Source: a bacterium
GTDB taxonomy: Bacteria; Patescibacteriota; Minisyncoccia; JACQLN01
Direction: 5' to 3'
Assembly (NCBI GenBank): GCA_030697795.1
Contig: JAUYOV010000007.1
Span: 73,810 to 137,809, forward strand
Length of the DNA: 64,000 bases
Position 1 is the stretch's first letter, and every line of letters starts with the position of its first letter. The notes below the pieces were generated by a model. That model was given only the letters and a program-made list of their open reading frames with translations. It had not been told where the DNA came from and did not search any database. The translations under genes and the position numbers were made by a program. Below, one piece after another: positions 3,158-48,879 of the stretch.

Positions 3158-3158
3158 A

Positions 3159-15518: not shown

Positions 15519-15953
15519 ATGGTACTGGATATTAAAAAGAATAAACTAAAAATAGAAAAAATCGCCCAGAACCGCAACTTAAAATTTGCGGTGGTTTTTG
15601 GCAGCGCGGCTTCTGGTTTAATGAGGGACTCCAGCGACACCGACATAGCAGTTTTGCAGAAAAACCATATTCCCCTTGATTATAGATCATTCTTAGATAT
15701 CAACTCTGAATTGACTGACGCCTTGGCGCTGGGCTTTAGAAAAATAGACCTAGTGGATCTGGCAACAGCTAATATACTTTTACGTTACGAAGCTACCCAA
15801 AATGGAATCCTGCTTTATGGAGATGAAACTGATTACCAAAATTACCGAACCTTCGCCTTTAAAGACTATATAGACAGCCAATCACTACGAGATCTGGAGT
15901 CATTGATTATAAGAAAACGACAAAGCGCCCTAGCCACTCAACTTAATGTTTAA
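15519..15953 (+). CDS. mntA: MntA-type minimal nucleotidyltransferase (antitoxin of HepT/MNT TA pair)
   Basis: 144 aa. AVVFGSAASGL...SDTDIAVL matches the Pol-beta NTase GS...D.D motif. Overlaps next gene by 8 nt. Confidence 0.6.
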   Translation: MVLDIKKNKLKIEKIAQNRNLKFAVVFGSAASGLMRDSSDTDIAVLQKNHIPLDYRSFLDINSELTDALALGFRKIDLVDLATANILLRYEATQNGILLYGDETDYQNYRTFAFKDYIDSQSLRDLESLIIRKRQSALATQLNV

Positions 15954-16377
15954 AAAAGATCTAGTTCAAAGGAAAATATCTCTTATACAAGACGACTTGA
16001 GCAATCTTGCTCAATTGTCTAGTTTTTCCATTGAAGAAATCGCGGGCGATTTTTTAAAACAAGCCACAGTAGAACGACTTTTAGAGCGAATCATTTCGCG
16101 GGCTATAGACATTAACGAACATCTTATTGCCGAACTGGCAACCGCAAACACTGTGCCGCCCAAAGATTACCGAGAAACATTTTTTAGACTTTCAGATTTA
16201 AACATCTATCCCAAAGAGTTTGCCAAGGAAATCGCCAAAAGCATCGGCACCAGAAATCTTTTAGTTCACGAATACGACAAGATAGATTATGAAAAAGTGT
16301 ACGCCTCTATCGGCGATTGCTTAAAAGACTATCATCAGTATGTTGATTATATTATAAAGTTTTTAGAAAATCGCTAG
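15946..16377 (+). CDS. hepT: HepT-type HEPN-domain toxin (DUF86)
   Basis: 143 aa. RNLLVHEYD matches the Rx4HxY HEPN motif near the C-terminus. Confidence 0.65.
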   Translation: MFKKDLVQRKISLIQDDLSNLAQLSSFSIEEIAGDFLKQATVERLLERIISRAIDINEHLIAELATANTVPPKDYRETFFRLSDLNIYPKEFAKEIAKSIGTRNLLVHEYDKIDYEKVYASIGDCLKDYHQYVDYIIKFLENR

Positions 16378-20252: not shown

Positions 20253-20329
20253 GGGCGTGTAGCTCAATTGGTTAGAGCACAGAGCTTATACCTCTGCGGT
20301 TCTAGGTTCGAGTCCTAGCACGCCCACCA
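20253..20329 (+). tRNA. tRNA-Ile with anticodon TAT (UAU), CCA encoded
   Basis: GGGCGTGTAGCTCAATTGGTTAGAGCACAGAGCTTATACCTCTGCGGTTCTAGGTTCGAGTCCTAGCACGCCCACCA. Ile-like body (compare E. coli Ile GGGCCTGTAGCTCAG...). Anticodon loop CTTATAC. Confidence 0.75.
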
Positions 20330-26464: not shown

Positions 26465-26552
26465 GCACGAAGCACGAAGCACGAAATCCGAAACATTTTG
26501 AATTTAGAATTTGGGATTTGTTTCGAATTTCGAATTTCGATATTCGAATTTA
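26465..26552. repeat. Inverted-repeat intergenic element, CGAAAT/GCACGAA-unit family (copy 1)
   Basis: gcacgaagcacgaagcacgaaatccgaaaca ... tgtttcgaatttcgaatttcgatattcgaattt. Similar modules at 48786-48879 and 50866-50990. Confidence 0.65.
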
Positions 26553-26621
26553 AGAAAATTGCCTCCAGCTTCTTCAACAACCCAAGAACCTAAAAGTGCT
26601 CCGGCTTACAAAATAAGAACT

Positions 26622-28001
26622 ATGGCCGGCGATATTGAAGCCCTCAAAAAAGGCTCGGTGCCTTCGCATTCAGAAATAAAAATAGACCCAGCCATCGTAC
26701 CTCAAAACAACAATATTAAATTATCTTTTCCTAAATTAGAACCTTTAAAACAAGAAGAAAAACCTACTATAAAACCTATATCGATGGGAACAGCCAACCC
26801 AAAAGAGGAAATACCAAAACCAATAATAACGCCTCCTGTTTATAAACCATTAGTTTCTCCTCCTCCGCTCTCTCCTAAGCAACCTCAACCTTTTGAAAAT
26901 CCAATCAAAAAACCTATTATGCCTCCGGAAAATTTAAATCAACAACGTGTTCAAGCTCCACCGCTGGGCTTACCAACAGAGCCATCAACACCTCCGCGCC
27001 CAACAACCACACCTATGAGGCCACTAACACCGCCTCCAATATACCAACAAGCGCCAAAACTACCCCCGCTACCTCCTTTACCAGTATCAAGGCCAAACCT
27101 GCCACCCTTGCCACCTATACCATCAAGACAGGCAATCCAAATGCCTTCTTTACCTTCCAGAGGTGGTAAGAGTAAGTTGATTTTGATTGGAATTGTATCG
27201 GTTTTAATTTTATCTTTTGTGGCTGGAGAAATATGGTGGTTCTTTTTAAGACAAACCCCAGCAACCGAACAAGCGACCACGCAAGATATTTTGCCCCCAC
27301 CCCAAGAACTTCAGCCTCTTTTACCGGTTGAAGAAGCCCCAGCAATAACAGACACCTCAACTGAAACAGTAATCCCCGCCGTACCGGCAGGACTTCTTTC
27401 TTATAATCAATCAGAACAAATTGTAAGTGTTGCCAATATAAAAACCTTAAATAGTGATTCTGTAGCGGAAAATGCCTTTGTTAGGCTAATGGTTGAGCAG
27501 AGCATAGTTGATAAAACAACGAGTGAAGCTTCAACTTCAGAAATAACGACTATAGACGAGCTACTGACGGCTTTAAAAATTAAGATACCTGCTTCGGTAA
27601 AAAAAGAACTATCTGAAGAATTTGATGTGTTTGCTTTTGGAGGAAACACATTCGATAAAACCGAATGTGAAAAAATAAAAAATACTTCTCCTTCTTGTTA
27701 CGGGCCAAGATTGGGTCTCGCTTTAAAGGTTTTAGATTCTGCTAAAATGAACCCCTTGCTTAAAACTTGGGAAAAAACAATGGTTACCGACCTTAAACCT
27801 ATGATACTAGCTAAAGTAGGTTCGTCGGCTAGCACTATTTTTCAATCTGGGATTTATCAAGATCAAACTATCCGCTATAAAAATTTACCCTTAAATACCA
27901 TAACAGTTGAATACGCTTTGGTGGGAAATGTTTTGATAATAACTACTTCTAAAAGCGCGGTGCTTAAAGCTATAGATTCTGTAAACGTTTCAAACCCGTA
28001 A
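26622..28001 (+). CDS. Proline-rich single-pass membrane protein with C-terminal globular domain (function unknown)
   Basis: Start at ATG MAGDIEALKKG; the track ORF extends upstream into the repeat via a non-ATG start. Long PPxP-rich region, then TM LILIGIVSVLILSFVAGEIWWFFL. Confidence 0.5.
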   Translation: MAGDIEALKKGSVPSHSEIKIDPAIVPQNNNIKLSFPKLEPLKQEEKPTIKPISMGTANPKEEIPKPIITPPVYKPLVSPPPLSPKQPQPFENPIKKPIMPPENLNQQRVQAPPLGLPTEPSTPPRPTTTPMRPLTPPPIYQQAPKLPPLPPLPVSRPNLPPLPPIPSRQAIQMPSLPSRGGKSKLILIGIVSVLILSFVAGEIWWFFLRQTPATEQATTQDILPPPQELQPLLPVEEAPAITDTSTETVIPAVPAGLLSYNQSEQIVSVANIKTLNSDSVAENAFVRLMVEQSIVDKTTSEASTSEITTIDELLTALKIKIPASVKKELSEEFDVFAFGGNTFDKTECEKIKNTSPSCYGPRLGLALKVLDSAKMNPLLKTWEKTMVTDLKPMILAKVGSSASTIFQSGIYQDQTIRYKNLPLNTITVEYALVGNVLIITTSKSAVLKAIDSVNVSNP

Positions 28002-28003: not shown

Positions 28004-28714
28004 ATGTTAGAAAAAGATTATAAAATATCTCTACTAAAAAAATTTTTACCAATACTAATAAACTGTCCCTATACTCGCGCAATTTTTTTAGCGGGCTCTA
28101 CCGCAGTAGGTAATCCCAAACCGGAAAGCGATATAGATTTAATAATAATTTCTCAAGAAAAAAGAGTCTGGTTAAACAGACTCTTTTTAGAACTAGCAAC
28201 TTTTATTTTTGGTAAAAAAAGATCAGGAAAAAAAATAAAAAATAGATTTTGTTTTAATATTTTTTTAGCCAACGCTTCGCCCTTATTACCCCACCAAGAT
28301 CTGATAGGCGCCAGTTTTTATAAAAATATAAAACCGGTCTGGGGCAGTGAAATTGAAATAAAAAAATTTTGGAGTGAAAACTTTTGGCTGAAAAACTTTT
28401 ATGAAAATGATTTTGAAAATGAAAAAAGTTTTTTAATCAAATATGATAATAAGAAAATCTGGCTTAAAAATATTTTAGAAAAAGTTTTAGAAAAAATTCG
28501 CCTGGGAAATATTTTAGAAAAAGTTTCTTACCAAACGCAAACCTATTATTTAAAAAAGATATTTGAAAAAAAGGTTTTTAATAAAAATTCTAAAAAATAT
28601 GACTTCGAAATTACCCCGGATTTAATCGCTTATCACTTTCCAATATCAAATCACTTTAAAGCCTCTTTGGGGTTATCCACTAAAAAGGAGAATTCAACCT
28701 CTGTGGAAAATTAG
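28004..28714 (+). CDS. Nucleotidyltransferase-domain protein (Pol-beta superfamily)
   Basis: 236 aa. AGSTAVGNPKPESDIDLIII has the GS...D.D motif. Confidence 0.45.
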   Translation: MLEKDYKISLLKKFLPILINCPYTRAIFLAGSTAVGNPKPESDIDLIIISQEKRVWLNRLFLELATFIFGKKRSGKKIKNRFCFNIFLANASPLLPHQDLIGASFYKNIKPVWGSEIEIKKFWSENFWLKNFYENDFENEKSFLIKYDNKKIWLKNILEKVLEKIRLGNILEKVSYQTQTYYLKKIFEKKVFNKNSKKYDFEITPDLIAYHFPISNHFKASLGLSTKKENSTSVEN

Positions 28715-28989
28715 CTGTTCTACATATATTTTTAGCTAATATTGTTCAAAAAAGCCAAGCATCCATCGGACGATTAACTTGCTGACAGCTCTCGACAGCA
28801 TTTTAAGATTCTGTTGTATTTACTTTTGAAGAACGAAGTGAGAAAATTAGATAGTTCTAACTAGTTCAATGTTTTTCTCGATGCCAGCTGGTCACAATGT
28901 TGGTGTCACTTGCTCTTTATTATTCCTTATTATATAGGATGAATTTGTTAGAACTCTAAGGTGTCCGTATTTAAATTGGGATACCCTAG

Positions 28990-29320
28990 AAATTTTTTCT
29001 TGCAGCAAAAAAACTGCTTGAATCTTGTTGGGTCGGTTCCGACCCAAATATAAATTAGTGGTCGCTAGAACCGGCTCCAACATATCCCCTCCGATAATAA
29101 TCGGGGAACAACGTTGTTCCGAGCCTAGAACGGAACAGGCAAATGTTTCTGTTAGTATAATCTTTCAGTTATGGATTGCTCTTTCTAAAAAAATAAAGGG
29201 AACAAGAGAAAAGTAATTTTCTCTTGGAGGCATAATGCCTCACACAGGGTGCTTAAACAATCTAGCAGTTTGGAAAAAAACAAACTGCGCAACCGGCTCG
29301 TTCCAGAGCCGGTTTTTTTA
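28990..29320 (+). ncRNA. Candidate structured non-coding RNA (unassigned family) ending in an intrinsic terminator
   Basis: About 770 bp with no credible ORF. Multiple perfect hairpins (gggtcggttccgaccc; ggaacaacgttgttcc; gaggcataatgcctc). Terminator ccggctcgttccagagccgg+T7 at 29293-29320. Confidence 0.25.
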
Positions 29321-29440
29321 TTGTTTATCTATGAGCGAAGCGAATAGTTATAAACAATAACCCGCTTAAGTTTTTGTTTTACAAAAATTTTGGCGGGTTA
29401 TAATATTAAAATAATATAATTTTTCTCTCCTGCAAGTATG

Positions 29441-29478
29441 AAAAATCCGCGCTCTTTGTAGAGCGCGGATTATTTTTT
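29441..29478. terminator. Bidirectional terminator
   Basis: aatccgcgctctttgtagagcgcggatt hairpin flanked by A5/T6 runs. Confidence 0.65.
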
Positions 29479-29488: not shown

Positions 29489-30397
29489 TTAAAACCTGAA
29501 TATCACCGAGAGCTGACCGCCTTTGGGAAGATCATCGGCAAATCTAGACATAAGTTTCACATCTATATTTTTTGTGTAGTATCTTATTCCCGGTGTAAAA
29601 ATGTTTTCTCGCCCTCTAAGATTTTCATATCTTGCTGTAAAAATACAGTCTGGCGCAATCATCTTGCCGTAATTAAAAAACCATTGAATATCTTCTCCAA
29701 AACCAACAGCTTCGAAAGATATATTTTCAGAACTTCCTTTCCGCCATTTGACTGCTGCCGCCCAAAGATTATCTCTGGTACGGCTCCAACGATAACTGCC
29801 AGAAAGTCCTAGGCCGGCTGGCAAATCTAAAATCGCTTTGGAATAGAGATGGATCTTGCCATCTTTTTGTTCACGCATAACTCCGCCCTCACGTTCGCCC
29901 AAAAAAGAGGCAAGCGACCAGCGAAGTCTTTTTTCTATAAAATCAATCTGTGCGCCATCATCTCTGTACACCAATTGACCAAAAATCGATGAATATCCAA
30001 TCAAGTTTAGCTGATCAGGGTACTTCAACCATTCCTCCGCAAATGGAGGAGCGAAACGGCCCACAGTGACTTTACTGATCGCCTTAATTACCTTAAAAGG
30101 ATTTGCGCACTTGATACTAGCCTGCTTGACCTCTATCTTTCCACGAGACACCACTGTGGAAACCTCCATATAGGAATATTGGATATCTTTGGGATGGCCA
30201 ATATTTTTCATTCCGTTTATCCAAAGATCTCCTAAGGCAAGATGGTTATCGCTATTTGCACGCTTGTGCTCATAGTTGTAACCCAAACTCACAAATCCAT
30301 CAAAATAAACAGAGTCTCCTCTAGCCACAAAGGCAGAGGCGGTTCTCGGTAAAAACGTGAAAATCGCCAATAAAGCCATTAAAACAGCCTGTTTCAT
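29489..30397 (-). CDS. Secreted beta-barrel OMP/porin-like protein (GC-richer; C-terminal Phe beta-signal)
   Basis: 302 aa. Signal peptide MKQAVLMALLAIFTFLPRTASA. Alternating hydrophobic pattern. C-terminus ...GQLSVIFRF ends in F like BAM-dependent outer-membrane proteins. Confidence 0.4.
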   Translation of the reverse strand: MKQAVLMALLAIFTFLPRTASAFVARGDSVYFDGFVSLGYNYEHKRANSDNHLALGDLWINGMKNIGHPKDIQYSYMEVSTVVSRGKIEVKQASIKCANPFKVIKAISKVTVGRFAPPFAEEWLKYPDQLNLIGYSSIFGQLVYRDDGAQIDFIEKRLRWSLASFLGEREGGVMREQKDGKIHLYSKAILDLPAGLGLSGSYRWSRTRDNLWAAAVKWRKGSSENISFEAVGFGEDIQWFFNYGKMIAPDCIFTARYENLRGRENIFTPGIRYYTKNIDVKLMSRFADDLPKGGQLSVIFRF

Positions 30398-30528
30398 ACA
30401 TCAAACTCCTTATTATGGGGTAAGTTTATAAGGTTCTATCCATTTTCAGTGTCGTTATATATAAGCACAATACCTAAAACACGGCAAATGAGCTTTTAAT
30501 CTTTGAAGCAATAAAATATAATGGGGGT

Positions 30529-30876
30529 ATGAATCAGGAACTAATGAAAGAGCTAGGCTCGCTTTTAGAAAAAGAAAAGAAAGCTTTAACCGAAGAGCTG
30601 GGTACTTTTGCTCACCCCGACAAAAACGTAAAAGGCGATTGGGATGCTAACTACGAAAACTTAGGCGATGGTTGGGATGAAAATGCTCAAGAAGTAACTG
30701 AATACGCCACACGGCTACCTATGGAACATAACTTAGAAACAAGGTTGCAAGATATTAACGATGCGCTAGAAAAAATAAAAAATAACGCTTTTGGTATTTG
30801 TGAAAAATGCGGAGAAGCGATTGATGTTGAAAGATTAAGAGCTGAACCGGCAGCGAGAGTATGTGTTCAACATTAA
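30529..30876 (+). CDS. DksA/TraR-family C4 zinc-finger protein
   Basis: 115 aa. N-terminal coiled coil, C-terminal CEKCGEAIDVERLRAEPAARVC Cys4 finger. Confidence 0.7.
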   Translation: MNQELMKELGSLLEKEKKALTEELGTFAHPDKNVKGDWDANYENLGDGWDENAQEVTEYATRLPMEHNLETRLQDINDALEKIKNNAFGICEKCGEAIDVERLRAEPAARVCVQH

Positions 30877-32520: not shown

Positions 32521-32799
32521 ATGTCAAAAACTGTAATAAACATCAAAACCGAAAAAGAAGTAAAAAACCTAGTTCAAAAACTAGCTAAGGATTTGGGCTT
32601 ATCTTTGAGCGATGTAATGAATGCGGCCTTAAGAAATTTTATCCGTAGCCGCGAGGTTTATTTTTCCCATATTCCGCAAATGACACCAGAATTTGAAAGG
32701 CTTTTAGGCGACATTGAAAAAGATATACAGATAAAAAAGAACCTGTCGCCAGCTTTTGATTCGGCCGACAAGGCTATAAAATATCTTAATTCTCTATGA
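32521..32799 (+). CDS. dinJ: DinJ/RelB-family antitoxin
   Basis: 92 aa. INIKTEKEVKNLVQKLAKDLGLSLSDVMNAALRNFI is RHH-type. 4-nt overlap with the toxin gene. Confidence 0.6.
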   Translation: MSKTVINIKTEKEVKNLVQKLAKDLGLSLSDVMNAALRNFIRSREVYFSHIPQMTPEFERLLGDIEKDIQIKKNLSPAFDSADKAIKYLNSL

Positions 32800-33056
32800 T
32801 TATTCTTTTTCATAGAAATTTCAAAAAACAGTTTCAGAAATTAAAAGCGGGCGAGAAATCTAAATTAAAAGAAAGGCTAGAACTTTTTCTGGTGGATATA
32901 TTTAACCCTAGCCTAAATAATCATCCGCTTAAAGGTAAATATGCCGGTTATAGAAGCATAAACATAAGCGGCGATTTAAGAGCTATATATAAACAAAATA
33001 CTAAAGACGCAGCCATCTTTGTAGCTGTTGATAGCCATAATCATCTATACCAATAA
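32796..33056 (+). CDS. yafQ: YafQ-family (RelE superfamily) toxin
   Basis: 86 aa. ...LKGKYAGYRSINISGDLRAIYKQ...VAVDSHNHLYQ resembles the YafQ C-terminal ...GSHSDLF. Confidence 0.6.
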   Translation: MIILFHRNFKKQFQKLKAGEKSKLKERLELFLVDIFNPSLNNHPLKGKYAGYRSINISGDLRAIYKQNTKDAAIFVAVDSHNHLYQ

Positions 33057-37722: not shown

Positions 37723-38508
37723 ATGATTAATCACCCGAGAAAATACTTTTGGCTTGGCTTAGTTTTGGTTTTTTTGTTGGGTATTTTTGGTGGCGCTTAT
37801 TTGGTTTTAAGAACCACGGTTAGCTATGGCGAAGAAGAAGCTTCTACACCGCTGTCGGCAGGGAAATCGAGCGACGAACTGTTAGCCGAACTTTTAACAC
37901 TTAACGAACAAGAAAAAGAAAGCCAAAATGCTTATGTCGCGCCCGAAGATAAAAACTTAACAGATGATTTTTTAAGCACAATGGTTTCTGCCACTGGCAT
38001 ATCTGAAGCAGCTGTCAGAAAAGCTGAGAGTTCTGATTTTATGGTAGAAACGGTTTTGCCTTATTTTAAGTCAAACGAAATCAACTTACTTCCTATAATA
38101 CCGACTTCTGTTTTTAAAACAGTATCAGATTCAAAACTAAATTATAAAAAATATTTTACCGATACCGAAAAAGACGCGACAAATATATATGGTGCCATTA
38201 ACAAGATTCTAGATGTTGATTTAGAGAACATATCCGAAACGAAAGTTATAAATAATCTTACAACTTACTCCGAAACCTTAAGCATATCGTTTGGAAAACT
38301 TTCAGAAGTAAGTGTTCCTAAAAAATATACCGAACTTCACAAAAATATTTTGTTAAGTGCCATCTCTGCAAAAAAAATTGCGGAAGCAATGATTAACCGA
38401 GAAGAAGACCCTTTAAAAACCTTGATTGTTCTAAACCAATTCGACGAAGTTGTTTTGTTTTGGACAAAAACTTTTGGCGATTATCAAAAATATTTTTTGT
38501 TAAAGTAA
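37723..38508 (+). CDS. Hypothetical secreted/membrane-anchored protein (first gene of T4SS-like cluster)
   Basis: 261 aa. N-terminal TM/signal. Confidence 0.45.
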   Translation: MINHPRKYFWLGLVLVFLLGIFGGAYLVLRTTVSYGEEEASTPLSAGKSSDELLAELLTLNEQEKESQNAYVAPEDKNLTDDFLSTMVSATGISEAAVRKAESSDFMVETVLPYFKSNEINLLPIIPTSVFKTVSDSKLNYKKYFTDTEKDATNIYGAINKILDVDLENISETKVINNLTTYSETLSISFGKLSEVSVPKKYTELHKNILLSAISAKKIAEAMINREEDPLKTLIVLNQFDEVVLFWTKTFGDYQKYFLLK

Positions 38509-38511
38509 CTA

Positions 38512-41124
38512 ATGGAAAATAATAAAAAACACAAAAAAATAATATTAGTTACTTTAATATTGTTTATGTTTTTTTCTCTATTAATACCTAAAAAAGTAGA
38601 TGCTTTTGCTCCTTTTGGCGTTACCATAACTCTAAAAGACGTAGAAAGAAAAGCAGACGCATTTAAAAAAAAGCTTGGAAAATTTGGTGAAATTGCCTTT
38701 CAAGCTCTAAGAAAAAGAATGTTGATCCAGATCCAAAATGATTTGGTTAATTGGGCGCAAGGCAACGGAGATCCAAGATTTATAACAAATCCTGGAAAAT
38801 TTATTAAAGAAAACGCTACGTTTGCAGCAGTATCAACTATAGATAAATTTTTTAGACAACACGGAACCGACATCTGTTCTCCATTTAAAGCTAACGTACA
38901 ATTTTTAGTAAACAAAACCCAATTTTTAAGGGAAGAACAGCTACGTTGCAGCTGGACGGACGTTAAAGAAAATATGGAAAAGTTTGCTAATAATTTTGAG
39001 GATGGCGGCTGGACATCTTGGTTAAAACTTCACGAAACCAGAAACACATTACCCGGAGTCTACTTGGCCTCTACACAGCTTATAGGCCAGGAAGTTGCTC
39101 TTGCCGGAAATACAGCCCAAGCCAAGCTTTCAGCTGGCAAAGGTTTTTTGGATCAGAAAAAGTGCGCGGTATATACAATTCGTGCCGAATATACAATAAG
39201 TGGCGATGCCATAGACTCGGAAGGAAATTTAATAAGTCCAGACTCTCCACAATTTCAAGGTTTTACTGGTGTGGGGATATCGGATCCTGTAAAACCCCTA
39301 AAACCAATAGATATGGATAAACTACCGCCAAACGCAACATGTATCCAAGAAGAAACTGTAACACCAGGAAGTGTTGTTGGGGATTTTGTTACACAAGGAT
39401 TATTAAAGGGAAGTTTAGACAGTATAGTAAATGCTACTGAACTTAGTCAAATAGTTAATGCTGTTTTAGATGCTTATATAAATAAAGTTGCCCGTGATGG
39501 TTTATCTAACGTAAAAACTGGCAATGGATCATGGACATCGGCAAGTAAAGCTAATGGTGGAACATATAGTAGTTTGGATACTATAAAAACAAGCCAATTA
39601 GGCTTTGAAAGTCCCGAGGTAATTTCTTTATTAAATAGACTGATAGGATTTCAAAATACAGCGGGCCAACTAATAAACCAAATAAATTCTTTGGTAAGAA
39701 GCGAAGAACAAGCTGAAAATTTTAAAGAGAAGCTGAAAAATGACATTACAGCAATCAAACTTTCTACTGTGGGTGTAAATTTGGGTGGCGAAACTGACGA
39801 AACAGATGATGTTATTGATAGGCTTTACCACAGAAAAAATTACAACGATGAACCAAAGAACCCTGGCCCATATGTGGCTAATCAAGTTTTTTATAATGTA
39901 ATTGGTGGCTTATGGGAACAAATAGAAACTAAGCTAGAAGACATAGAAAATAAAAGCTGTTCAATTGCCAGTATCCCAGATATTCGAATCTACGCATCGC
40001 CTAAAAAAGAAGCACTGCCATTCACGGATGGTAATGGTAAAGTTTTTATTTGGCTCCCAGAAACCCTTACTTCTCCTACTGGAGCTCGTGCACCTTTTAC
40101 ATATCTTACATATGATGGAACGTTTACCCAAAATGTTGAAGATGTAGAACCAACAAAAATGACATCTTTTGATGCTTGGAAAAGCAGCTACTTAACGACT
40201 AACGGACTAATAGTGGCTGGGTCGGCAAAAAGTATAAATAAAACAACGGCTCAAGCATATGCAGAATCTATATCAAATTCAAAAAAGATTGCAGAAACCT
40301 TTCAAGAGGACTTAAAGGAGGTGTCGGAAGTAGTTGATGGCACAAGCAGGCTTACTTCTTTGCTTACAGATTACGACAAAGCGCTAAGAGAAACTAACAC
40401 TATAAAAGCAATGCAAGACTACTTATCTGCCTTAGAATCTAGTGATGAAAACCAACTCAAAACCAAGCGATCTGTTCTATTAGAAAAACAGCTTGAAGCC
40501 AGAAATAAATGGCGTTTAGACCAAGAAACAATATTAAAAGACTCAAACATCTCTATAACAGAAAAAGATAAAGTTGCCGCTAAAATTAGAATAATAGAAA
40601 TAGCTATAGACGCTATAGAAAGCTCTTTAAGAGGTTTGGCATCACTTGCCCCAGATTTAACGTCAAATTATATTTCTCTTAATACCGAAAATTTTTCGGA
40701 ACTCTCAAAAGATGAAGTTATAGAACTGGAAGAAAACACCAGAATTTATATTCGTTCTAGGATACCTACACCAGAACTAATTAAAATAATAGCTGTTTTA
40801 GATTCAGTAGATTTTATTAAAAACGGAGAAAGCGTTTCTGATGCTGTAGCTAACGCTTTGAGTATAAATATTCCACAAATAGAAAAAATGCTGGAAGAAA
40901 AAGAAAGCAGAGCTAGTTCATATTCTACAGATGTAACTAATACAGTTGGTAATTTCCTAACAAAAGAAGACGAAAACGAGGTGGGTAACATAGCAGAAAA
41001 AAGAAAGGAATTGGGAGTTACTGGTGGAGAAAGCGAGTGGGAAAAATATTATAAAAATAGATTTCAGTTGGCTTATGCGGTCTTAATTGATGACTATTTT
41101 ACAAATAAATTTCCCTGCAAATAA
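38512..41124 (+). CDS. Large (870 aa) secreted protein of the T4SS-like cluster, function unknown
   Basis: Signal peptide (LILFMFFSLLIPKKVDA). Long coiled-coil-rich C-terminal half. Start 4 nt after upstream stop. Confidence 0.5.
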   Translation: MENNKKHKKIILVTLILFMFFSLLIPKKVDAFAPFGVTITLKDVERKADAFKKKLGKFGEIAFQALRKRMLIQIQNDLVNWAQGNGDPRFITNPGKFIKENATFAAVSTIDKFFRQHGTDICSPFKANVQFLVNKTQFLREEQLRCSWTDVKENMEKFANNFEDGGWTSWLKLHETRNTLPGVYLASTQLIGQEVALAGNTAQAKLSAGKGFLDQKKCAVYTIRAEYTISGDAIDSEGNLISPDSPQFQGFTGVGISDPVKPLKPIDMDKLPPNATCIQEETVTPGSVVGDFVTQGLLKGSLDSIVNATELSQIVNAVLDAYINKVARDGLSNVKTGNGSWTSASKANGGTYSSLDTIKTSQLGFESPEVISLLNRLIGFQNTAGQLINQINSLVRSEEQAENFKEKLKNDITAIKLSTVGVNLGGETDETDDVIDRLYHRKNYNDEPKNPGPYVANQVFYNVIGGLWEQIETKLEDIENKSCSIASIPDIRIYASPKKEALPFTDGNGKVFIWLPETLTSPTGARAPFTYLTYDGTFTQNVEDVEPTKMTSFDAWKSSYLTTNGLIVAGSAKSINKTTAQAYAESISNSKKIAETFQEDLKEVSEVVDGTSRLTSLLTDYDKALRETNTIKAMQDYLSALESSDENQLKTKRSVLLEKQLEARNKWRLDQETILKDSNISITEKDKVAAKIRIIEIAIDAIESSLRGLASLAPDLTSNYISLNTENFSELSKDEVIELEENTRIYIRSRIPTPELIKIIAVLDSVDFIKNGESVSDAVANALSINIPQIEKMLEEKESRASSYSTDVTNTVGNFLTKEDENEVGNIAEKRKELGVTGGESEWEKYYKNRFQLAYAVLIDDYFTNKFPCK

Positions 41125-43391
41125 TGCCTAAGCTAATAAATTTAATTACGAAAAATTATTTTAAACTCCTAACTTTTGTTGGCTTGTTTTTGTTTGTACC
41201 AAAAATGGCTTTTGCGCAGTGGACTTTAATGGGTCTGGCCATGGATTCATTTTGGGACATTGTGCTGGGTATAGTTTCCCTGGTTATAGATTTTTTTGGA
41301 ATGTTATTAATAACCGCGGCGGGGTCTATAGTAAATTATGTTTTTAGTTTTCAATCTTTCGCCACTGTACCCGTGGTTCAAATCGGCTGGACCATCAGCC
41401 GAGACTTAGCCAATATGTTTTTTATATTAATAATGTTGCTTATAGCTTTTGGCACGGTTTTGCGTATGGAAACTTATAGCTGGAAAAAACTTATACCCAA
41501 ACTGGTTATTGCCGCTTTAACCATTAACTTTAGCTTGATAATCTGCGCCGCCGTAATTGATTTTGGCAATTCTGTTTCTAAATTTTTTATTTCTGGCGGT
41601 AATACTAGCGAAGAACTGGACGTGAGCGCCTCTATTTTAAGTTCTTTGCGCGCCGGCACCATCGCCCAGTTAAGAAACAACGTCAGCGGCAATTCGCCTG
41701 TAACATCTTTAATAATGGCCTCCATCGGCCAGCTTATAATGTACGTGGTTATTGCTCTTATATTACTGGCTTACGCGGGAGTTATGATATCTAGGTTAAT
41801 AAAATTGTGGATTTTAATTATAATCTCGCCTTTGGCTTGGGTAAGCTCGGCCTTGCCGGGAATTAAAGGCGTGCCGGGGCTTAGCAACCGCTTTAGCGAA
41901 TGGTGGGGCAAATTTTTTAACCTGGCTGTATTTTTTCCTGTTTCTATAAGCTTTTTTTTGATGCTGGGCTTGATAGCTGGGTCTACATTTAATTCGCTGG
42001 AACAAAGCACTATAAATGATATTAGCGGTAGCAATTTTGACAGCCTAAGAGACGCCGGCGGATTTTGGGAAGTACTTTTTCCATCTACGGGTTTTTCGGT
42101 AATAATGCAGTTTATTCTGGTGATTGGCATTTTATGGTACGGCTTAGAGCAGGCCAAAGCCTCGGGCACTTACGGCGGTAAATTGGTGGTGGGCTGGGCC
42201 GAACAAGGCAGAAAATGGGCGGAAGGTAAGTTAAAAACCAGCCCACGATTGGTTGGCGGAACCGCCTTGAGAATGGCTGATCGGCTTGCGGGAACAGGAG
42301 CGGCCACCAGAGGTATAGCTAGAGGCTTAGAATATTTAGAAAAAAAGCCACTAATAGGCCGAGCTATTGGCGGAGCCGGCACAAGGTTTGCGGCTCAACA
42401 AAAGGCGCTTAATGATGCTGCGGGCAAAACTGCTAAGCTCCGTCCTAACGATATAGAAGTTAAATTAAAACAAGCAGCTTTTACGCCCGAAGGTTTAGCT
42501 GAACGCGCTGGTTTAATAAAGAATTTAATAGACAAGGGGCAATTTACTTTGGACCAAAAACCTGAATTTGAGAAGGAATGGCTTAGTATGCTTCAGACGT
42601 TTCAAAACTTTGGCGGAAGTGTAGTTGATCTTATAAAAAAACGTCCAGACTTAGCTTTAAACGAAAATGTTCAAAAAATGATTGGGCGCGATGTTAATGC
42701 TCCACCACCCGTACAGGCTAAATGGAACAAAATTTCAACCCTCGCAACACCAGAAGCTAAAGAAGCCGATATTCATAAAATACTTAATGAGGATATATTT
42801 AAAACATCTGCTGATATTGCAGGTATTCAAAAAGAAGCCTTTGATACAAAAGGAAAATTGGATCCAGTACAACTTACACAATACGATAGGATTGGTGGTG
42901 ATATGAAAACAAGAAAAGAAACACATGAAACAGACATCGAAAGCAATAATAGAGAAATTAAAGAACTGGAAATTCAACTTGCAGCCGCAAGAAACCAAAA
43001 TAACGCCGCTGACATTACCCGTCTTGAACATATAATAGAAGGACTAGCTTCGGCCGAAGAAAACCTAATGAGAAATTACACGGTAGAAATGAAAGATCTT
43101 ATGACTCAACAAATCCAAGTATCTGGCCGAACGGGGCAAAAAATGTTGCTTGATTTTTTGGCTAAGGAGTCTGAAAAAGCGGGCACTATGACCCAGGGCA
43201 ACTTAAATTCTTTAGCTTCCAAAAATAAGGCTGCTCATTTGGAACTTATGAAATATCTTAGCCTTGTGGCTCCTGGCATGAAAGGTAAATGGAAAGACAG
43301 TATTTATAAACAAGTCATAACCAACGAAACATTAAATACTATGCCTGATCCCTTAGCGGCAGCTCCACCACCACCTCCAGCAGGTCCATAA
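41124..43391 (+). CDS. VirB6/TrbL-like polytopic membrane protein with long C-terminal coiled-coil tail ending in poly-Pro
   Basis: 755 aa. 6+ hydrophobic helices in the first ~330 aa. Position adjacent to the VirB3/VirB4-like genes. C-terminus ...AAAPPPPPAGP. ATGA overlap with upstream gene. Confidence 0.5.
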   Translation: MPKLINLITKNYFKLLTFVGLFLFVPKMAFAQWTLMGLAMDSFWDIVLGIVSLVIDFFGMLLITAAGSIVNYVFSFQSFATVPVVQIGWTISRDLANMFFILIMLLIAFGTVLRMETYSWKKLIPKLVIAALTINFSLIICAAVIDFGNSVSKFFISGGNTSEELDVSASILSSLRAGTIAQLRNNVSGNSPVTSLIMASIGQLIMYVVIALILLAYAGVMISRLIKLWILIIISPLAWVSSALPGIKGVPGLSNRFSEWWGKFFNLAVFFPVSISFFLMLGLIAGSTFNSLEQSTINDISGSNFDSLRDAGGFWEVLFPSTGFSVIMQFILVIGILWYGLEQAKASGTYGGKLVVGWAEQGRKWAEGKLKTSPRLVGGTALRMADRLAGTGAATRGIARGLEYLEKKPLIGRAIGGAGTRFAAQQKALNDAAGKTAKLRPNDIEVKLKQAAFTPEGLAERAGLIKNLIDKGQFTLDQKPEFEKEWLSMLQTFQNFGGSVVDLIKKRPDLALNENVQKMIGRDVNAPPPVQAKWNKISTLATPEAKEADIHKILNEDIFKTSADIAGIQKEAFDTKGKLDPVQLTQYDRIGGDMKTRKETHETDIESNNREIKELEIQLAAARNQNNAADITRLEHIIEGLASAEENLMRNYTVEMKDLMTQQIQVSGRTGQKMLLDFLAKESEKAGTMTQGNLNSLASKNKAAHLELMKYLSLVAPGMKGKWKDSIYKQVITNETLNTMPDPLAAAPPPPPAGP

Positions 43392-43400
43392 AATAAAAAT

Positions 43401-44087
43401 ATGAACAGCCAACAACTAACATTAGACCAAATAGAACAACTAAACCAAGTTTCGGACCCAGTGGCCCGAAGACGCTTTTCTGTTCTGTTTCAGTTGCCCC
43501 AAGACTTGCAAACTGCTTTTGAAAGCGAGCAAACCGAAAATAGCGTTTGGGATATTGCTAAGGTAAAATATGATTTAGTCGATAGCGACGTCAGCAAAGT
43601 TTCACGAATAATCGGCTTAATATTTTTGGGTGAACTGCCCATTAAAAACTTTATTGCCGAATTAAAAAATAAATTAAATGTAGATATTCAAAAAGCCCAA
43701 GCCATTGCTCAAGATATTAACCAAGCCATCTTCCAGCCGGTCAGAACAAGTTTGATGCAAGTGCATGGGATAACCTCTACCGAAAATCCGAAATCCTCCT
43801 CCTTCGCTAAAGCTACGAAGGACAAGCAAATACCCCTACTCCGCCCACCCTTCGCCAGAGGCTACGGCGTGGCACAGCAACCTGTTAAACTTACACCACC
43901 GGCCTATCAACCTAGTTACGATAATGCCCAAAAAAGAAGAGATGAGGTGTTAAGTAAAATTAGACAGCAACCCCCTCCAGCTAAGCCCGCCTCGTTTTAT
44001 TTTTCTCGCAATATAAGACCAAATAACCTGAAGAAAAGTAAAATGACGAAGAGAGTTAATAATAAGTACGATGGATTTTTTAGTTAA
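43401..44087 (+). CDS. Hypothetical protein (T4SS-like cluster); contains in-frame GC-rich palindromic motif
   Basis: 228 aa. Internal segment aaatcctcctccttcgctaaagctacgaagg (43794-43821) coding SSSFAKATKD, see findings. Confidence 0.45.
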   Translation: MNSQQLTLDQIEQLNQVSDPVARRRFSVLFQLPQDLQTAFESEQTENSVWDIAKVKYDLVDSDVSKVSRIIGLIFLGELPIKNFIAELKNKLNVDIQKAQAIAQDINQAIFQPVRTSLMQVHGITSTENPKSSSFAKATKDKQIPLLRPPFARGYGVAQQPVKLTPPAYQPSYDNAQKRRDEVLSKIRQQPPPAKPASFYFSRNIRPNNLKKSKMTKRVNNKYDGFFS

Positions 44088-44122
44088 CACACTAATATAT
44101 AAATGACAAATGAATCCAAAAA

Positions 44123-44155
44123 CCCTAAATCATAAATCCGAAACTCTAAACAAAC
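44123..44155. repeat. Left arm of inverted-repeat element carrying four-helix-bundle gene (CTAAAT-unit family)
   Basis: ccctaaatcataaatccgaaactctaaacaaac. Reverse complement resembles right arm at 44531-44575. Confidence 0.6.
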
Positions 44156-44159
44156 ACTA

Positions 44160-44519
44160 ATGAACCAAATTACAAACAAGAATAATTACGACCTAGAAGA
44201 AAGGACGTTAAAATTTGCCCAAAGAGTAAATGAATATGTCCGTAAGTTATCAAGGACAATAACTAACATAGAGAATGGCAAACAATTAGTGAGATCAGGT
44301 GGATCAGTAGGAGCAAACTATATAGAAGCTAACGAATCCCTTGGTAGAAAAGACTTTATGATGAGAATTAAGATATCCAAAAAAGAAACAAAAGAAAGTA
44401 GATACTGGCTAATACTAACAGAGCCGAATAAAGACAACCTACTTGAAAAAGAAAGTTTGATTAAGGAATCTACGGAGCTTATGAAAATATTTGGTTCAAT
44501 CCTAGAAAAATCAAAATAG
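44160..44519 (+). CDS. Four-helix-bundle protein (family often found in 23S rRNA intervening sequences)
   Basis: 119 aa. ...TLKFAQRVNEYVRKLSRTITNIENGKQLVRSGGSVGANYIEANESLGRKDFMMRIKISKKETKESRYWLILTE matches the four-helix-bundle (TIGR02436-type) signature (QLxRS..SIGANI.EA...S.KDF...I..KE..ET.YWL). Confidence 0.7.
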   Translation: MNQITNKNNYDLEERTLKFAQRVNEYVRKLSRTITNIENGKQLVRSGGSVGANYIEANESLGRKDFMMRIKISKKETKESRYWLILTEPNKDNLLEKESLIKESTELMKIFGSILEKSK

Positions 44520-44530
44520 GTTATTGGTAA

Positions 44531-44575
44531 ATTGTGATTTATAATTTGTTTAGGATTTAGATATTAGAATTTAGT
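44531..44575. repeat. Right arm of inverted-repeat element carrying four-helix-bundle gene
   Basis: aattgtgatttataatttgtttaggatttagatattagaatttag. Confidence 0.6.
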
Positions 44576-44591
44576 ATTTCACACACATATT

Positions 44592-44870
44592 ATGCAATTT
44601 CAGGTTCCACAATTTATAGAAATGGAAGATAAAATAATCGGCCCGTTAACCCTAAAGCAGTTTGGCTTTGTGGCGGTGGCCGGTGTACTTTGTTTTATAT
44701 TTTTTAGCACTCTTACCACCACTTTTGCGTTTATTCTTTCTTTCCCTGTGGCTTTAGCGGCTCTGGTTTTGGCTTTTGGCAAAATTAAGGGCCTACCAGC
44801 CTTAAAATATTTATCGTCGTTTATTAAATTTTCCTTAAAGCCACAATTATACTTGTGGAAGAAGAAATGA
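44592..44870 (+). CDS. PrgI-family / VirB3-like small membrane protein (precedes VirB4 as in Gram-positive T4SS)
   Basis: 92 aa. MQFQVPQFIEMEDKIIGPLTLKQFGFVAVAGVLCFIFF... fits the PrgI family N-terminal pattern (..P.FI..EDKI.GPLTL.Q) plus two TM helices. Confidence 0.55.
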   Translation: MQFQVPQFIEMEDKIIGPLTLKQFGFVAVAGVLCFIFFSTLTTTFAFILSFPVALAALVLAFGKIKGLPALKYLSSFIKFSLKPQLYLWKKK

Positions 44871-44892
44871 TAAACAATCAAATTATAAATAC

Positions 44893-44985
44893 TAAATCCG
44901 AAACTCTAAACAAACTCCAAATGCCAATTTACCAAATTAGAATTTGTGATTTAAATATTGTTTAGGATTTAGATATTAGAATTTA
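44893..44985. repeat. 'Empty' copy of the four-helix-bundle-carrying inverted-repeat element (left + right arms with about 25-nt gene remnant)
   Basis: ctaaatccgaaactctaaacaaac | tccaaATGccaatttaccaaattag | aatttgtgatttaaatattgtttaggatttagatattagaatttag. Arms near-identical to those at 44123 and 44531. Confidence 0.6.
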
Positions 44986-44991
44986 GAGATT

Positions 44992-45660
44992 ATGGCAAAT
45001 ACTTCTTCAACCCACCAACTTATAGAAACCAAAGAAATTAAAGATGGTCTTGTTGTTTTAAAAAATGGGGGATTAAGAGCTATTTTGATGGTATCTTCCA
45101 TAAACTTTGCTTTAAAATCCAGCGAAGAACAAGAAGCCATAATCGACCGCTTTCAGGGTTTTATAAATTCCATAGATTTTCCTGTTCAAATTTTGGTTCA
45201 ATCCAGAAAACTGGATATTTCTGAATATTTAAAATTTCTAAACGAAAGAATCGGCATACAAACCAACGAGCTCTTAAAAATACAGACTTCTGAATATATT
45301 AATTTTATACAAGAATTAATTAAGCTAACCAATGTTATGTCTAAGTTCTTTTATGTGATAATTCCCCTAAGTACGGTGGCCGTTCTAGCAACAGGGTTTT
45401 TTTCTAAGTTTTTTTCTAAAAACAAAAAAGGCGTTCAAGATCAAAAAGACTTAAACTTTGAAACACAAAAAAATACAATTCAACAAAGAGTAGACCAAGT
45501 TACCAGTTTGTTAAGTTCTATGGGTTTAAAAGCGATACCCTTAGAAAAAGAAGCTTTAATCGAGCTTTTGTATACATCGTATAACCCCGGCAGCGAAGTT
45601 AAGCAAAAGAATATGGAGGCCTTAATTGCCACAGGGGATGAAGCTAAAAAATCAGGATAA
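44992..45660 (+). CDS. virB4: VirB4/TrbE/PrgJ-like ATPase, N-terminal fragment (gene interrupted at A6 run)
   Basis: 222 aa. ...IKDGLVVLKNGGLRAILMVSSINFALKSSEEQEAIIDRFQGFINSIDFPVQILVQSRKLDISEYL is the typical VirB4 N-terminal domain. Confidence 0.75.
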   Translation: MANTSSTHQLIETKEIKDGLVVLKNGGLRAILMVSSINFALKSSEEQEAIIDRFQGFINSIDFPVQILVQSRKLDISEYLKFLNERIGIQTNELLKIQTSEYINFIQELIKLTNVMSKFFYVIIPLSTVAVLATGFFSKFFSKNKKGVQDQKDLNFETQKNTIQQRVDQVTSLLSSMGLKAIPLEKEALIELLYTSYNPGSEVKQKNMEALIATGDEAKKSG

Positions 45661-45665
45661 AATAT

Positions 45666-47426
45666 ATGGAACCGAAAAACCAACAAATCGCCTCGGCCGG
45701 CACCCTAGAAGATCTTTTAGCCCCGCCGGCTTTACAGGTCAATCCTTCTAATTTGCAGATAGGCGAGAAATTTTCTAGAACAATATTTGTGGCTAATTAC
45801 CCTAGATTTTTGAGCGTGGGCTGGTTTTCGCCTATTATTAACTTAGATAAAATTTTTGATGTTTCTTTATTTATTCAACCCTCCGAAACTGGTCCTGTTT
45901 TAAAAAAACTAACCAAAAAAACAGCGCAGATCGGCGCGCAGATGTCGGAAAAAGAAGAGGGGGGTTTTATACGCGATCCCATGCTAGAAACAGCTTACCA
46001 AGATTTAGAATCTTTGCGCGATAAACTGCAACAAGGCACTGAAAGGTTTTTTCGGGCCGGCTTATATCTTACTTTTTATGCTAGTTCCGTAAAAGAACTG
46101 GATGATGTTGAAAGCAGAGTAAATACGATATTAGAATCAAAATTAATATATTCTAAAGTTGCGGTGTTCCAGCAACAAGAAGGCTATACCTCTACCCTGC
46201 CTTTAAATTTAGATAAGCTTCAGGTTTATAATAGCTTAAACACTGGCCCGCTTTCTTCTTTCTTTCCTTTTGTTTCAGCCGATCTTACCTCCAACAAAGG
46301 TGTGCTTTATGGCATAAACAGGCACAATAACAGCCTTATACTTTTTGATAGATTCTCTTTAGAAAACGCCAACACGGTTGTTTTTGCTAAATCCGGTTCG
46401 GGCAAAAGCTATACTGTTAAATTAGAGGTTTTACGTTCCTTAATGCTAGGCACCGATGTAATAATTATAGACCCAGAAAGCGAGTATAAATACTTAAACG
46501 ATGTAGTGGGCGGAACTTTTGTAAATATTTCTTTAACTTCTGCTAACCATATAAATCCGTTTGATTTAACTATACCCAGCGAAGATGAAAGCCCAGCCGA
46601 AGTTTTAAAAGCTAATATTATAGAGCTGACCGGCTTATTAAAAGTAATGTTGGGCCAGTTAACGCCCGAAGAAGATTCAATTATAGACAAAGCCTTAACC
46701 GAAACCTATGCTTCGCGCGATATCAGCATAAATTCGGATTGGCGGGGCAAACAGGTACCTTTAATGGGCGACCTGCATACCGTATTAAAAAACATGCAGG
46801 GCGCGGAAAAATTAGCCATTCGCATAGAAAAATATGTGACAGGCACATTCTCTGGCTTTTTAAATCAACCCACCAATGTGGCCTTAAACAATAACTTAGT
46901 TGTTTTTTCTATAAGAGATCTGGAACCAGAACTTCGCCCAGTGGCTATGTATATTTTATTGCACTATGTTTGGAACTTAATAAGAGCGCAAAGAAAGAAA
47001 AGAATAATGGTGGTGGACGAGGCCTGGTGGATGATGCAACATCAAGAAGCCGGCGCGTTTTTATTTAGCATTGCCAAAAGATGCCGTAAATATTATTTGG
47101 GGCTTACCACTATAACCCAAGACGTGGAAGATTTTATGAAATCGCAATACGGCAAGCCCATTGTAACCAATTCCGCCCTGCAAATATTGCTAAAGCAATC
47201 GCCGGCGGCCATAGACACGGTGGCTCAAACATTTAATTTAACCGATGAAGAAAAGTTTTTACTTTTAGAGTCCAGCGTGGGCGAAGGCATATTTTTAGCC
47301 GGTTTAAAGCGCGCGGCTATAAAAGTGGTGGCTTCTTATACCGAAGATCAAGTTATTACATCCGACCCAGCGCAATTATTGGAAATAGAAGCGGCTAAGA
47401 AAGAACTAGCCGAAGCACAGAAATGA
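45666..47426 (+). CDS. virB4: VirB4/TrbE/PrgJ-like ATPase, C-terminal ATPase fragment
   Basis: 586 aa. Walker A FAKSGSGKS, Walker B/DEAW (IMVVDEAWWMM), and the conserved motifs of T4SS VirB4 ATPases. Confidence 0.85.
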   Translation: MEPKNQQIASAGTLEDLLAPPALQVNPSNLQIGEKFSRTIFVANYPRFLSVGWFSPIINLDKIFDVSLFIQPSETGPVLKKLTKKTAQIGAQMSEKEEGGFIRDPMLETAYQDLESLRDKLQQGTERFFRAGLYLTFYASSVKELDDVESRVNTILESKLIYSKVAVFQQQEGYTSTLPLNLDKLQVYNSLNTGPLSSFFPFVSADLTSNKGVLYGINRHNNSLILFDRFSLENANTVVFAKSGSGKSYTVKLEVLRSLMLGTDVIIIDPESEYKYLNDVVGGTFVNISLTSANHINPFDLTIPSEDESPAEVLKANIIELTGLLKVMLGQLTPEEDSIIDKALTETYASRDISINSDWRGKQVPLMGDLHTVLKNMQGAEKLAIRIEKYVTGTFSGFLNQPTNVALNNNLVVFSIRDLEPELRPVAMYILLHYVWNLIRAQRKKRIMVVDEAWWMMQHQEAGAFLFSIAKRCRKYYLGLTTITQDVEDFMKSQYGKPIVTNSALQILLKQSPAAIDTVAQTFNLTDEEKFLLLESSVGEGIFLAGLKRAAIKVVASYTEDQVITSDPAQLLEIEAAKKELAEAQK

Positions 47427-47427
47427 C

Positions 47428-47538
47428 AAATTCCTAATTTCTAATCAATTTCTAATGCTTAAATGCCTAATTTCAGAACTTAGCCATTAGACATTTTGGT
47501 TTGATTAGATATTAGAAATTAGATATTAGACATTTTAA
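47428..47538. repeat. Inverted-repeat intergenic element, TCTAAT-unit family (copy 5)
   Basis: caaattcctaatttctaatcaatttctaatgcttaaatgcctaatt ... gtttgattagatattagaaattagatattagacatttt. Confidence 0.7.
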
Positions 47539-47539
47539 A

Positions 47540-47941
47540 ATGGATGAACAAAACGAATTAGAAGCCGAGGGCTTAACAGAAGAAGAAATTGAGGGCGTTA
47601 AAAACGGCGATATTAAAGAACCAGTGTTTCCAACTATGATTTTTGCCGCCGCTTTAACTAAAGATACTTTAGATATAATAGAGGCGTTGTGGGTTGTTAC
47701 TTTTGGTATAATAGGCACAATAACAAATACATTTATGGTGCCTCTAGTTTATACTTATGTGAATACTAACTTAAACCTATCCAGAAGATATATTTATAAA
47801 AGACTCATCGGCAAAGCTATAGCGGAATTTGTGCCATATTTATCGGCTGTCTCGTTTTGGTCGTTGTTTGTTTGGAAAGCTCATCAAAGAGAAAAAAAGA
47901 AAATGGAAAAGGTGCTAAGCATTATGAATAAATCATCTTAG
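47540..47941 (+). CDS. Hypothetical small membrane protein (acidic N-terminus, 2-3 TM)
   Basis: 133 aa. Immediately downstream of virB4. Confidence 0.4.
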   Translation: MDEQNELEAEGLTEEEIEGVKNGDIKEPVFPTMIFAAALTKDTLDIIEALWVVTFGIIGTITNTFMVPLVYTYVNTNLNLSRRYIYKRLIGKAIAEFVPYLSAVSFWSLFVWKAHQREKKKMEKVLSIMNKSS

Positions 47942-47944
47942 ATA

Positions 47945-48781: not shown

Positions 48782-48785
48782 TAAA

Positions 48786-48879
48786 TAAATCCGAAGCACG
48801 AAATCCGAAGCACGAAACAAATCTCAAATTCAAAATTTTAAATTACAAATTTTGGGTATTAAGATTTGGATATTGGAAT
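48786..48879. repeat. Inverted-repeat intergenic element, CGAAAT/GCACGAA-unit family (copy 2)
   Basis: aaatccgaagcacgaaatccgaagcacgaaacaaatctcaaattcaaaat ... attttgggtattaagatttggatattggaatttgtttg. Confidence 0.6.

Follow-up and report, generated by a model that had tools for sequence, protein, structure and literature searches.

A gene whose product is predicted to fold into a 16-stranded porin-type β-barrel was found in a member of the Patescibacteria (candidate phyla radiation, CPR) on contig JAUYOV010000007.1. It occupies positions 29489..30397 on the minus strand of a stretch of 64,000 nucleotides, called the window here, and encodes 302 amino acids. The predicted fold and a native CPR origin of the gene are together considered very probable. 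The whole explanation that we prefer, in which the porin is located in an outer layer of the CPR cell's own, is given a probability of about 0.45. Outer-membrane β-barrel proteins serve as markers of a second membrane, and a CPR-restricted, vertically inherited porin family with intact export signal and β-signal would be a concrete, testable molecule for the question of the CPR envelope.

The fold was predicted with AlphaFold2 (AF2), first from an alignment of 9 sequences and then from one of 29 sequences (alignment A2). The 9-sequence model was mediocre and all-β, with a predicted local distance difference test score (pLDDT) of 70, and it already matched porins. The 29-sequence alignment gave a pLDDT of 89.7 and a predicted template modelling score of 0.81, with all five models at a pLDDT of 88-90. 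In this model, 16 strands forming an antiparallel barrel were assigned by DSSP (residues 30-43, 53-65, 75-84, 87-98, 107-115, 143-155, 158-171 and 183-192 for strands 1-8, and 196-205, 211-220, 224-233, 236-248, 251-260, 263-274, 278-286 and 293-301 for strands 9-16). Strands 5 and 6 are joined by a 27-residue loop that contains short helices (pLDDT ~91) and takes the topological position of the constriction loop L3. The modelled surface loops are very short, L2, L6 and L7 having only 2 residues each. The pLDDT falls below 50 at residues 16-26, the junction of signal peptide and mature protein.

Foldseek comparison with the PDB returned only porins as top matches, with E values of 1.7e-11 to 1e-9 and template modelling (TM) scores of 0.64-0.71. 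The match with the Rhodobacter blastica porin (1PRN) had an E value of 1.7e-11 and a TM score of 0.65-0.68, and further matches were Vibrio OmpU, OmpF, OmpC, PhoE and OmpK36 (TM up to 0.71), and OmpM1 of Veillonella (8BYS). The alignments are about 306-375 columns long and cover most of the 16-stranded porins (289-353 residues). The high-confidence prediction is thus a transmembrane β-barrel of porin type, as opposed to a soluble β-sandwich. A β-barrel pore-forming toxin was also considered and was rejected because one chain makes the whole 16-stranded barrel and the structural neighbours are porins.

The preliminary description of this stretch had proposed an open reading frame of about 300 amino acids with a cleavable signal peptide, alternating hydrophobicity, the aromatic end ...SVIFRF and an outer-membrane-type barrel; the sequence features were borne out, and the barrel is supported by the predicted fold. 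The N-terminus, MKQAVLMALLAIFTFLPRTASA followed by FVARGD, has an n-h-c organisation when read by eye and by hydropathy, with a basic n-region, a 13-residue hydrophobic core and an A-S-A cleavage motif, and it lacks a lipobox cysteine. A comparable hydrophobic N-terminus is present in 59 of the 64 full-length family members and a lipobox in none of the 64. At the other end of the protein, the terminal residue is aromatic in 51 of the 64 members (W in 29, F in 21, Y in 1), about ten further members have F at position -3, and the family consensus is Q-h-V-h-R-[W/F]-COOH, where h is a hydrophobic residue. The C-terminus, GGQLSVIFRF, reads as a canonical outer-membrane β-signal.

The strands themselves point in the same direction. 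Hydrophobic and polar phases alternate in most of them, and across the family one face is 65-83% hydrophobic while the other is only 10-45%. Such one-sided hydrophobic faces are the signature of a lipid-facing barrel wall. The charged residues R203, E229, R256, E258 and K281, which are invariant or nearly so, fall on the polar, lumen-facing phase, and these positions would fit a conserved pore interior. The strand 5/6 loop is opened by the family motif GRFxPPF[GA]xEW, conserved in alignment A2, and G113, F115, P117, F119, E122, W123 and D128 are invariant in alignment A1.

The family and the origin of the gene

Known families gave no access to the protein. No match was found in Pfam or NCBIfam at E ≤ 10, PHROGs was also empty, a Pfam search with 29 family members yielded no family, porin or other, and phmmer and profile searches against PDB sequences returned nothing meaningful; a hit to DNA polymerase eta (E 0.67) among the PDB sequences was set aside as a chance match. 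A word-index search retrieved nine proteins of 41-100% identity, all of about 300 residues. An exhaustive hidden Markov model search of 1.84 billion cluster representatives produced 43 matches (clusters at 50% identity) at E ≤ 1e-3, 23 of them at E ≤ 1e-10. Nearly all are 260-320 residues long, and no diderm sequence homologue was among the representatives searched.

The cluster look-ups led mainly to metagenome proteins without a source name. Among the matches listed, all members with a named source belong to the Patescibacteria group: 'Patescibacteria group bacterium' (several, including isolate AH-259-L05, a name that resembles those of single-cell genomes), Candidatus Yanofskybacteria, Candidatus Kerfeldbacteria and 'Parcubacteria group bacterium'. 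Unclassified 'bacterium' metagenome-assembled genomes from groundwater were also among the sources. Some of the named CPR members were contributed by profile word-index searches, which were capped at 8000 candidates. On these matches, the protein is the founding member of a Patescibacteria-restricted family, which we propose for inclusion in Pfam, NCBIfam and PHROGs. Identity falls to about 20% within CPR, a divergence which indicates that the family has long been resident there. No CPR porin was described in the papers reached by a full-text literature search, and the 'CPR porin-cytochrome' mentions connected with FeGenie concern non-CPR candidate phyla.

The surroundings of the gene are those of a resident gene. 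Orthologues of 54-58% identity are found in a Yanofskybacteria-like lineage, on a 384-kb Hainich groundwater contig (0.1-µm fraction) and in GTDB species representatives, where the gene order is alike gene for gene: UvrD, LysM-M23, a toxin-antitoxin pair, ComM-like, DksA-like, the porin, a gap of ~780 bp, nucleotidyltransferase, a proline-rich protein, PNPase, NYN and S15. A related-locus search with a narrow alignment found 3 close loci. Distant members (20-30% identity) occur in other CPR lineages and in other housekeeping neighbourhoods, one with IF2, RbfA, ClpP and RNase Y, a second running from L31, RF1 and PrmC to S2, EF-Ts and PyrH, and a third on a 190-kb JGI contig with short YidC, YidD and RnpA and with the gyrA...S1-ftsH order of the window. 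At least four CPR lineages thus have the porin gene among housekeeping genes in a conserved arrangement. The AH-259-L05 contig (L013), which carries porin homologue P0027, also has, at 1-3646 on the minus strand, a 23S rRNA gene interrupted by a group I intron and, beside it, a LAGLIDADG homing-endonuclease gene; intron-bearing 23S rRNA is common in CPR.

In gene content the window is typical of the origin region of a CPR chromosome, with dnaA-dnaN, a 235-aa YidC, Jag/KhpB, gyrA, ftsH, PNPase, PBP1a, LysM-M23, pilins of a type IV secretion system (T4SS) and a VirB4/TraG-type ATPase. G+C makes up 41.8% of the porin gene and 38.2% of the window, where 20% of the 909-bp segments are at least as rich as the gene. 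With G+C at third codon positions (GC3) given second, the porin gene has 41.8/38.6, gyrA 42.6/40.2, ftsH 42.2/40.5 and the Mg-chelatase/ComM-like gene 43.2/37.5.

The expression signals are conserved as well. The Shine-Dalgarno sequence is invariant in four orthologous loci (alignment A7), as are the 14 nucleotides ATTGTGCTTATATA that comprise the -10-like element of an upstream block, which we infer to act as promoter. The hairpin that immediately follows the stop codon persists despite base changes in loci L001 and L007 and is the predicted intrinsic terminator of the gene. Taken together, promoter, Shine-Dalgarno sequence and 3' hairpin suggest a monocistronic porin unit. On the 5' side lies a 131-bp divergent promoter region in common with a DksA/TraR zinc-finger gene (30529-30876). 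In three separate Patescibacteria lineages, by contrast, the divergent neighbour of the porin homologue is a regulator of the TrmB family, which is of sugar-sensing type (L008, L009, L014 and the JGI 190-kb contig), and this adjacency is a weak hint of a regulatory pairing with nutrient-responsive control. In combination, these observations make a native, vertically inherited CPR gene well supported.

Cellular location and rival explanations

The route that we envisage begins with export by Sec and cleavage of the signal peptide. The mature protein would then fold into the 16-stranded transmembrane barrel with its L3-like loop, sit in a lipid environment outside the cytoplasmic membrane, and may serve small hydrophilic solutes as a water-filled channel for passive diffusion. 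It would be made as a single-gene unit from its own conserved promoter, with a consensus ribosome-binding site and a strong terminator. CPR have no known outer membrane yet hold a conserved porin, and this leads either to an unrecognised outer layer or to a pore placed in the membrane of a host. The location preferred here, at somewhat less than even odds, is an outer layer that contains lipid and belongs to the CPR cell itself, in the form of membrane patches or of a toga-like porin sheath. The gene's place among housekeeping genes, its own strong expression signals, the conservation of the β-signal and the adjacent regulators of sugar type speak for this location. The toga of Thermotoga, a sheath of β-barrel trimers with only small lipid patches, provides a precedent (PMC10160955). 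With such a location, the porin would be a relic or retained element of diderm ancestry and these lineages would not be simply monoderm. The preliminary description had named an unusual envelope as its alternative to transfer. A more far-reaching form of this proposal, which we regard as doubtful, is that some Parcubacteria-group lineages (Yanofskybacteria, Kerfeldbacteria) are not truly monoderm and keep or build a porin-containing outer layer, as lipid patches or a toga-like sheath of barrels, without recognisable BAM (the β-barrel assembly machinery), Lpt or lipopolysaccharide (LPS) machinery, with lipids possibly derived from the host, the porin family being a relic of a diderm Terrabacteria ancestor.

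Several points weigh against a porin in the cell's own outer layer. No domain of Omp85/BamA, Skp, SurA, Lpt (LptD), Lol or TolC was found in the 64-kb window, secretin and OmpA domains were also not found there, and the same outer-membrane biogenesis domains were not found in at least ~200 kb of annotated flanks of the homologues. The preliminary description had already pointed to monoderm-style machinery, and its reading of the window was correct in this respect (short YidC, T4SS pilins with the VirB4/TraG-like ATPase, LysM-M23, and none of the Omp85, Lpt and Lol genes). CPR are held to be without an outer membrane, they lack TonB-ExbBD and PilQ, and microscopy points to an envelope that is not of Gram-negative type (PMC6744442); BamA/Omp85 and other outer-membrane biogenesis genes have been reported as missing from CPR (PMC6744442, bioRxiv 10.1101/2021.05.31.446380); porins and surface-layer homology (SLH) tethers have been described as lost in the clade of Chloroflexi, CPR and Dormibacteraeota (bioRxiv 10.1101/2021.05.31.446380); and the T4SS of CPR is of monoderm type (PMC12857230). 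Moreover, the family is rare, and the channel function, the oligomeric state and the position of the loop within the lumen are matters of prediction. Apart from the porin gene, a single open reading frame of the window (3686-5068) combines a hydrophobic N-terminus with a Phe at the end, and its product, a helical membrane protein with several passes, was dismissed as a barrel candidate. The sugar-binding protein at 9337-10629, examined as either free periplasmic or anchored, has an ambiguous N-terminus, with a 20-residue hydrophobic segment, a possible cleavage site between VSA and F, and no Cys.

A different destination follows if the CPR cell secretes the unfolded barrel at its site of attachment, from where it would enter the outer membrane of a diderm host, by spontaneous insertion or by the host's BAM after delivery to the host periplasm, and open a path for host metabolites. 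Classical porins can insert into bilayers in vitro, and PorB of Neisseria reaches host membranes. A Sec signal without any anchor agrees with such a fate, as does the C-terminal β-signal, which would suit a BAM that is not visibly encoded in the CPR DNA examined, and CPR are reduced epibionts without an outer membrane (PMC12857230, PMC6744442). However, no link to a delivery system is apparent, the gene being among housekeeping genes in every lineage examined and outside the T4SS/pilin clusters (7220-9117; 37.7-50.9 kb), and no host-recognition domain is apparent in the model, where loops L2, L6 and L7 have two residues each. A classical 16-stranded porin that one bacterium secretes as an effector into another is not known. 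At least some Yanofskybacteria are reported to live on archaea (Methanothrix), hosts that lack an outer membrane, and this also weighs against a host-directed porin, which on balance we consider unlikely. Quite unlikely, in our judgement, is a barrel that is no channel at all and is either a structural element embedded in the wall or S-layer, or an extracytoplasmic protein that binds lipids or other ligands and scavenges host lipids. CPR have unusual surface layers, and the lack of outer-membrane biogenesis genes in the window is as expected for such a barrel; so are the absence of fatty acid synthesis from CPR (PMC12857230) and the toga, where porin-like trimers stand in a mostly proteinaceous sheath (PMC10160955). 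Nevertheless, the continuous hydrophobic outer face on most strands and the size and shape of a diffusion porin argue for a lipid-like environment, and the invariant charges face the lumen as in the constriction zones of channels.

Very improbable is the reading in which the protein has no working context in CPR cells, the gene having been acquired recently from a diderm or being a diderm fragment misplaced in assembly or binning. In its favour, diderm porins have this fold, and the gene is slightly richer in G+C than the window mean; the preliminary description had put it at about 45% G+C, bracketed by strong bidirectional terminators, and proposed acquisition from a diderm. The measured value lies inside the range of the housekeeping genes of the window, with GC3 likewise equal to theirs. 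As for the terminators, one such hairpin does stand on the 3' side, and the 5' side has the divergent promoter region and no terminator. The gene order is identical on the Hainich contig and in the GTDB representatives although the porin itself is only 54-58% identical there, and promoter, Shine-Dalgarno sequence and terminator are conserved. The divergence inside CPR, the absence of a diderm homologue among the 1.84 billion representatives and of any Pfam porin family on the 29 members stand equally against a diderm source. Normal composition, kept gene order and CPR-only relatives led us to reject chimerism, mis-binning and recent diderm transfer, and with them the proposed acquisition.

The consequences differ with the location. 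If the porin is in an outer layer of the CPR cell, as we prefer, envelope diversity would have been misjudged in about a quarter of bacterial diversity, and barrel assembly without the known BAM would need explaining. If it is inserted into the host, it would be a new kind of episymbiont effector and could explain the access of ultra-small cells to host metabolites. If neither holds, a classical porin fold would be at work outside any outer membrane, for which we know of no described precedent.

Neighbouring features of the window

The features of the porin locus are collected in Table 1. They include a candidate structured non-coding RNA, about 560 nt long, in the gap that separates the nucleotidyltransferase gene (28004-28714) from the porin gene. 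The DNA of this 770-bp intergenic region is 79-82% identical between relatives, whose porin genes are 70-73% identical. The folding z-score of the minimum free energy is -8.95 on the plus strand versus -6.95 on the minus strand. In a comparison of three divergent copies, RNAalifold gave -139 versus -117 kcal/mol for the plus and minus strands, with many U-G/U-A exchanges kept on the plus strand. The RNA ends in a hairpin (29291-29314) followed by T7, in which four base pairs change on both sides yet stay paired. No Rfam family was found for the intergenic RNA, as scans at the gathering threshold and at E ≤ 1 gave only terminator-like chance matches, and ARAGORN (tmRNA) and Rfam (tmRNA, RNase P, 6S, SRP) assigned it to no known RNA type. 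It is present only beside porin orthologues of the Yanofskybacteria type. The hairpins at 29203-29314 belong to this plus-strand RNA and account for the additional terminators of the preliminary description.

Table 1. Elements of the porin locus in window coordinates
Feature	Position	Strand	Basis
Candidate structured non-coding RNA	~28765-29322	+	
Hairpin of 12 bp, G+C-rich, T-runs on both strands	29444..29471		Terminator scan
Porin-like 16-stranded β-barrel gene	29489..30397	-	Open reading frame, homologues, AF2, Foldseek
Last strand, residues 293-302, β-signal-like C-terminus	29492..29521	-	
Loop with short helices, strands 5/6, L3 position, residues 116-142	29972..30052	-	DSSP
Signal peptide, residues 1-22, signal peptidase I site predicted after A-S-A, no lipobox	30332..30397	-	
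Shine-Dalgarno AAGGAG, 8 nt before ATG	30406..30411	-	Alignment A7
Promoter-like block: TTGCCG (-35-like), 17-nt spacer, TGcTTATAT(A) (-10-like)	30458..30487	-	Alignment A7

Next to the nucleotidyltransferase gene, the plus strand encodes a 496-aa protein (26511-28001) that matched no family. Its N-terminal half is very rich in proline, it has a single transmembrane segment, and relatives hold a counterpart of 456-475 aa at the same position. The T4SS genes of the window are found in two places. At 7220-9117 on the minus strand, T4SS-pilin (VirB2/TrbC-like) genes follow one another in a row of three, of which the third is fused to a VanY-like domain, and a separate T4SS-like block at 37723-50859 on the plus strand contains a TraG/VirB4-type ATPase (45666-47426), a pilin-domain protein (48778-49722) and several large open reading frames without family (38512-43391). 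These genes match the pilin-rich, monoderm-type T4SS described for Patescibacteria (PMC12857230).

Toxin-antitoxin-like genes are scattered among the housekeeping genes (5156-5548, 15519-16377, 32521-33056) and comprise a MazF/PemK-like toxin, an MNT/HepT pair (Polbeta nucleotidyltransferase and HepT RNase) and an antitoxin/YafQ-ParE-like pair. A tRNA-Ile with anticodon UAU was detected by ARAGORN at 20253-20329 on the plus strand (Rfam tRNA, 73.8 bits). Such a tRNA is uncommon, since most bacteria read AUA with a lysidine-modified CAU tRNA. G+C peaks in the window at 61-64 kb (48-49%), where 61237-63897 on the plus strand encodes an 886-aa protein with repeated ASH/HYDIN-type immunoglobulin-like, DUF1573 and PKD domains, which is probably a surface adhesin. 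It is this gene, and not the porin gene, that is the compositional outlier of the window.

Comparison with known porin systems

The CPR protein resembles the general diffusion porins (1PRN; E. coli OmpF, OmpC and PhoE; Vibrio OmpU) in its predicted 16-stranded antiparallel barrel of ~280 mature residues, in the long strand 5/6 loop with a short helix at the L3 position, in its Sec signal and in its hydrophobic-x-hydrophobic-R-F/W end. It differs from them in having no sequence homology detectable by Pfam, NCBIfam and PDB profile searches, in surface loops that are mostly extremely short, and in being encoded by organisms that are held to have neither an outer membrane nor BAM. A likeness of another kind exists to mycobacterial MspA and corynebacterial PorA/H, which are channels in the unconventional outer lipid layer of bacteria classed as Gram-positive. 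Their architecture is wholly different from that of the CPR porin, MspA being an octameric goblet and PorA/H small helical peptides. Neither MspA nor PorA/H was among the Foldseek matches, and a mycomembrane is not known in CPR.

OmpM/SlpA-type porins such as OmpM1 of Veillonella (8BYS) and the toga barrels of Thermotoga (Omp-β, pOMPs) offer a further comparison. Unlike OmpM, the CPR protein has no N-terminal SLH or coiled-coil tether, as no Pfam domain was found, and its first strand starts at residue 30, 8 residues past the predicted cleavage site. Thermotoga and Veillonella encode BamA, whereas none was seen in the DNA examined here, and OmpM porins have been described as lost in CPR (bioRxiv 10.1101/2021.05.31.446380). 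Like the toga barrels, the CPR family has no sequence homologues in other phyla. Both the OmpM/SlpA-type porins and the toga barrels are porin barrels of the Terrabacteria, the branch to which CPR are assigned, and in the toga, trimers of such barrels make an outer sheath with few lipids and no LPS (PMC10160955).

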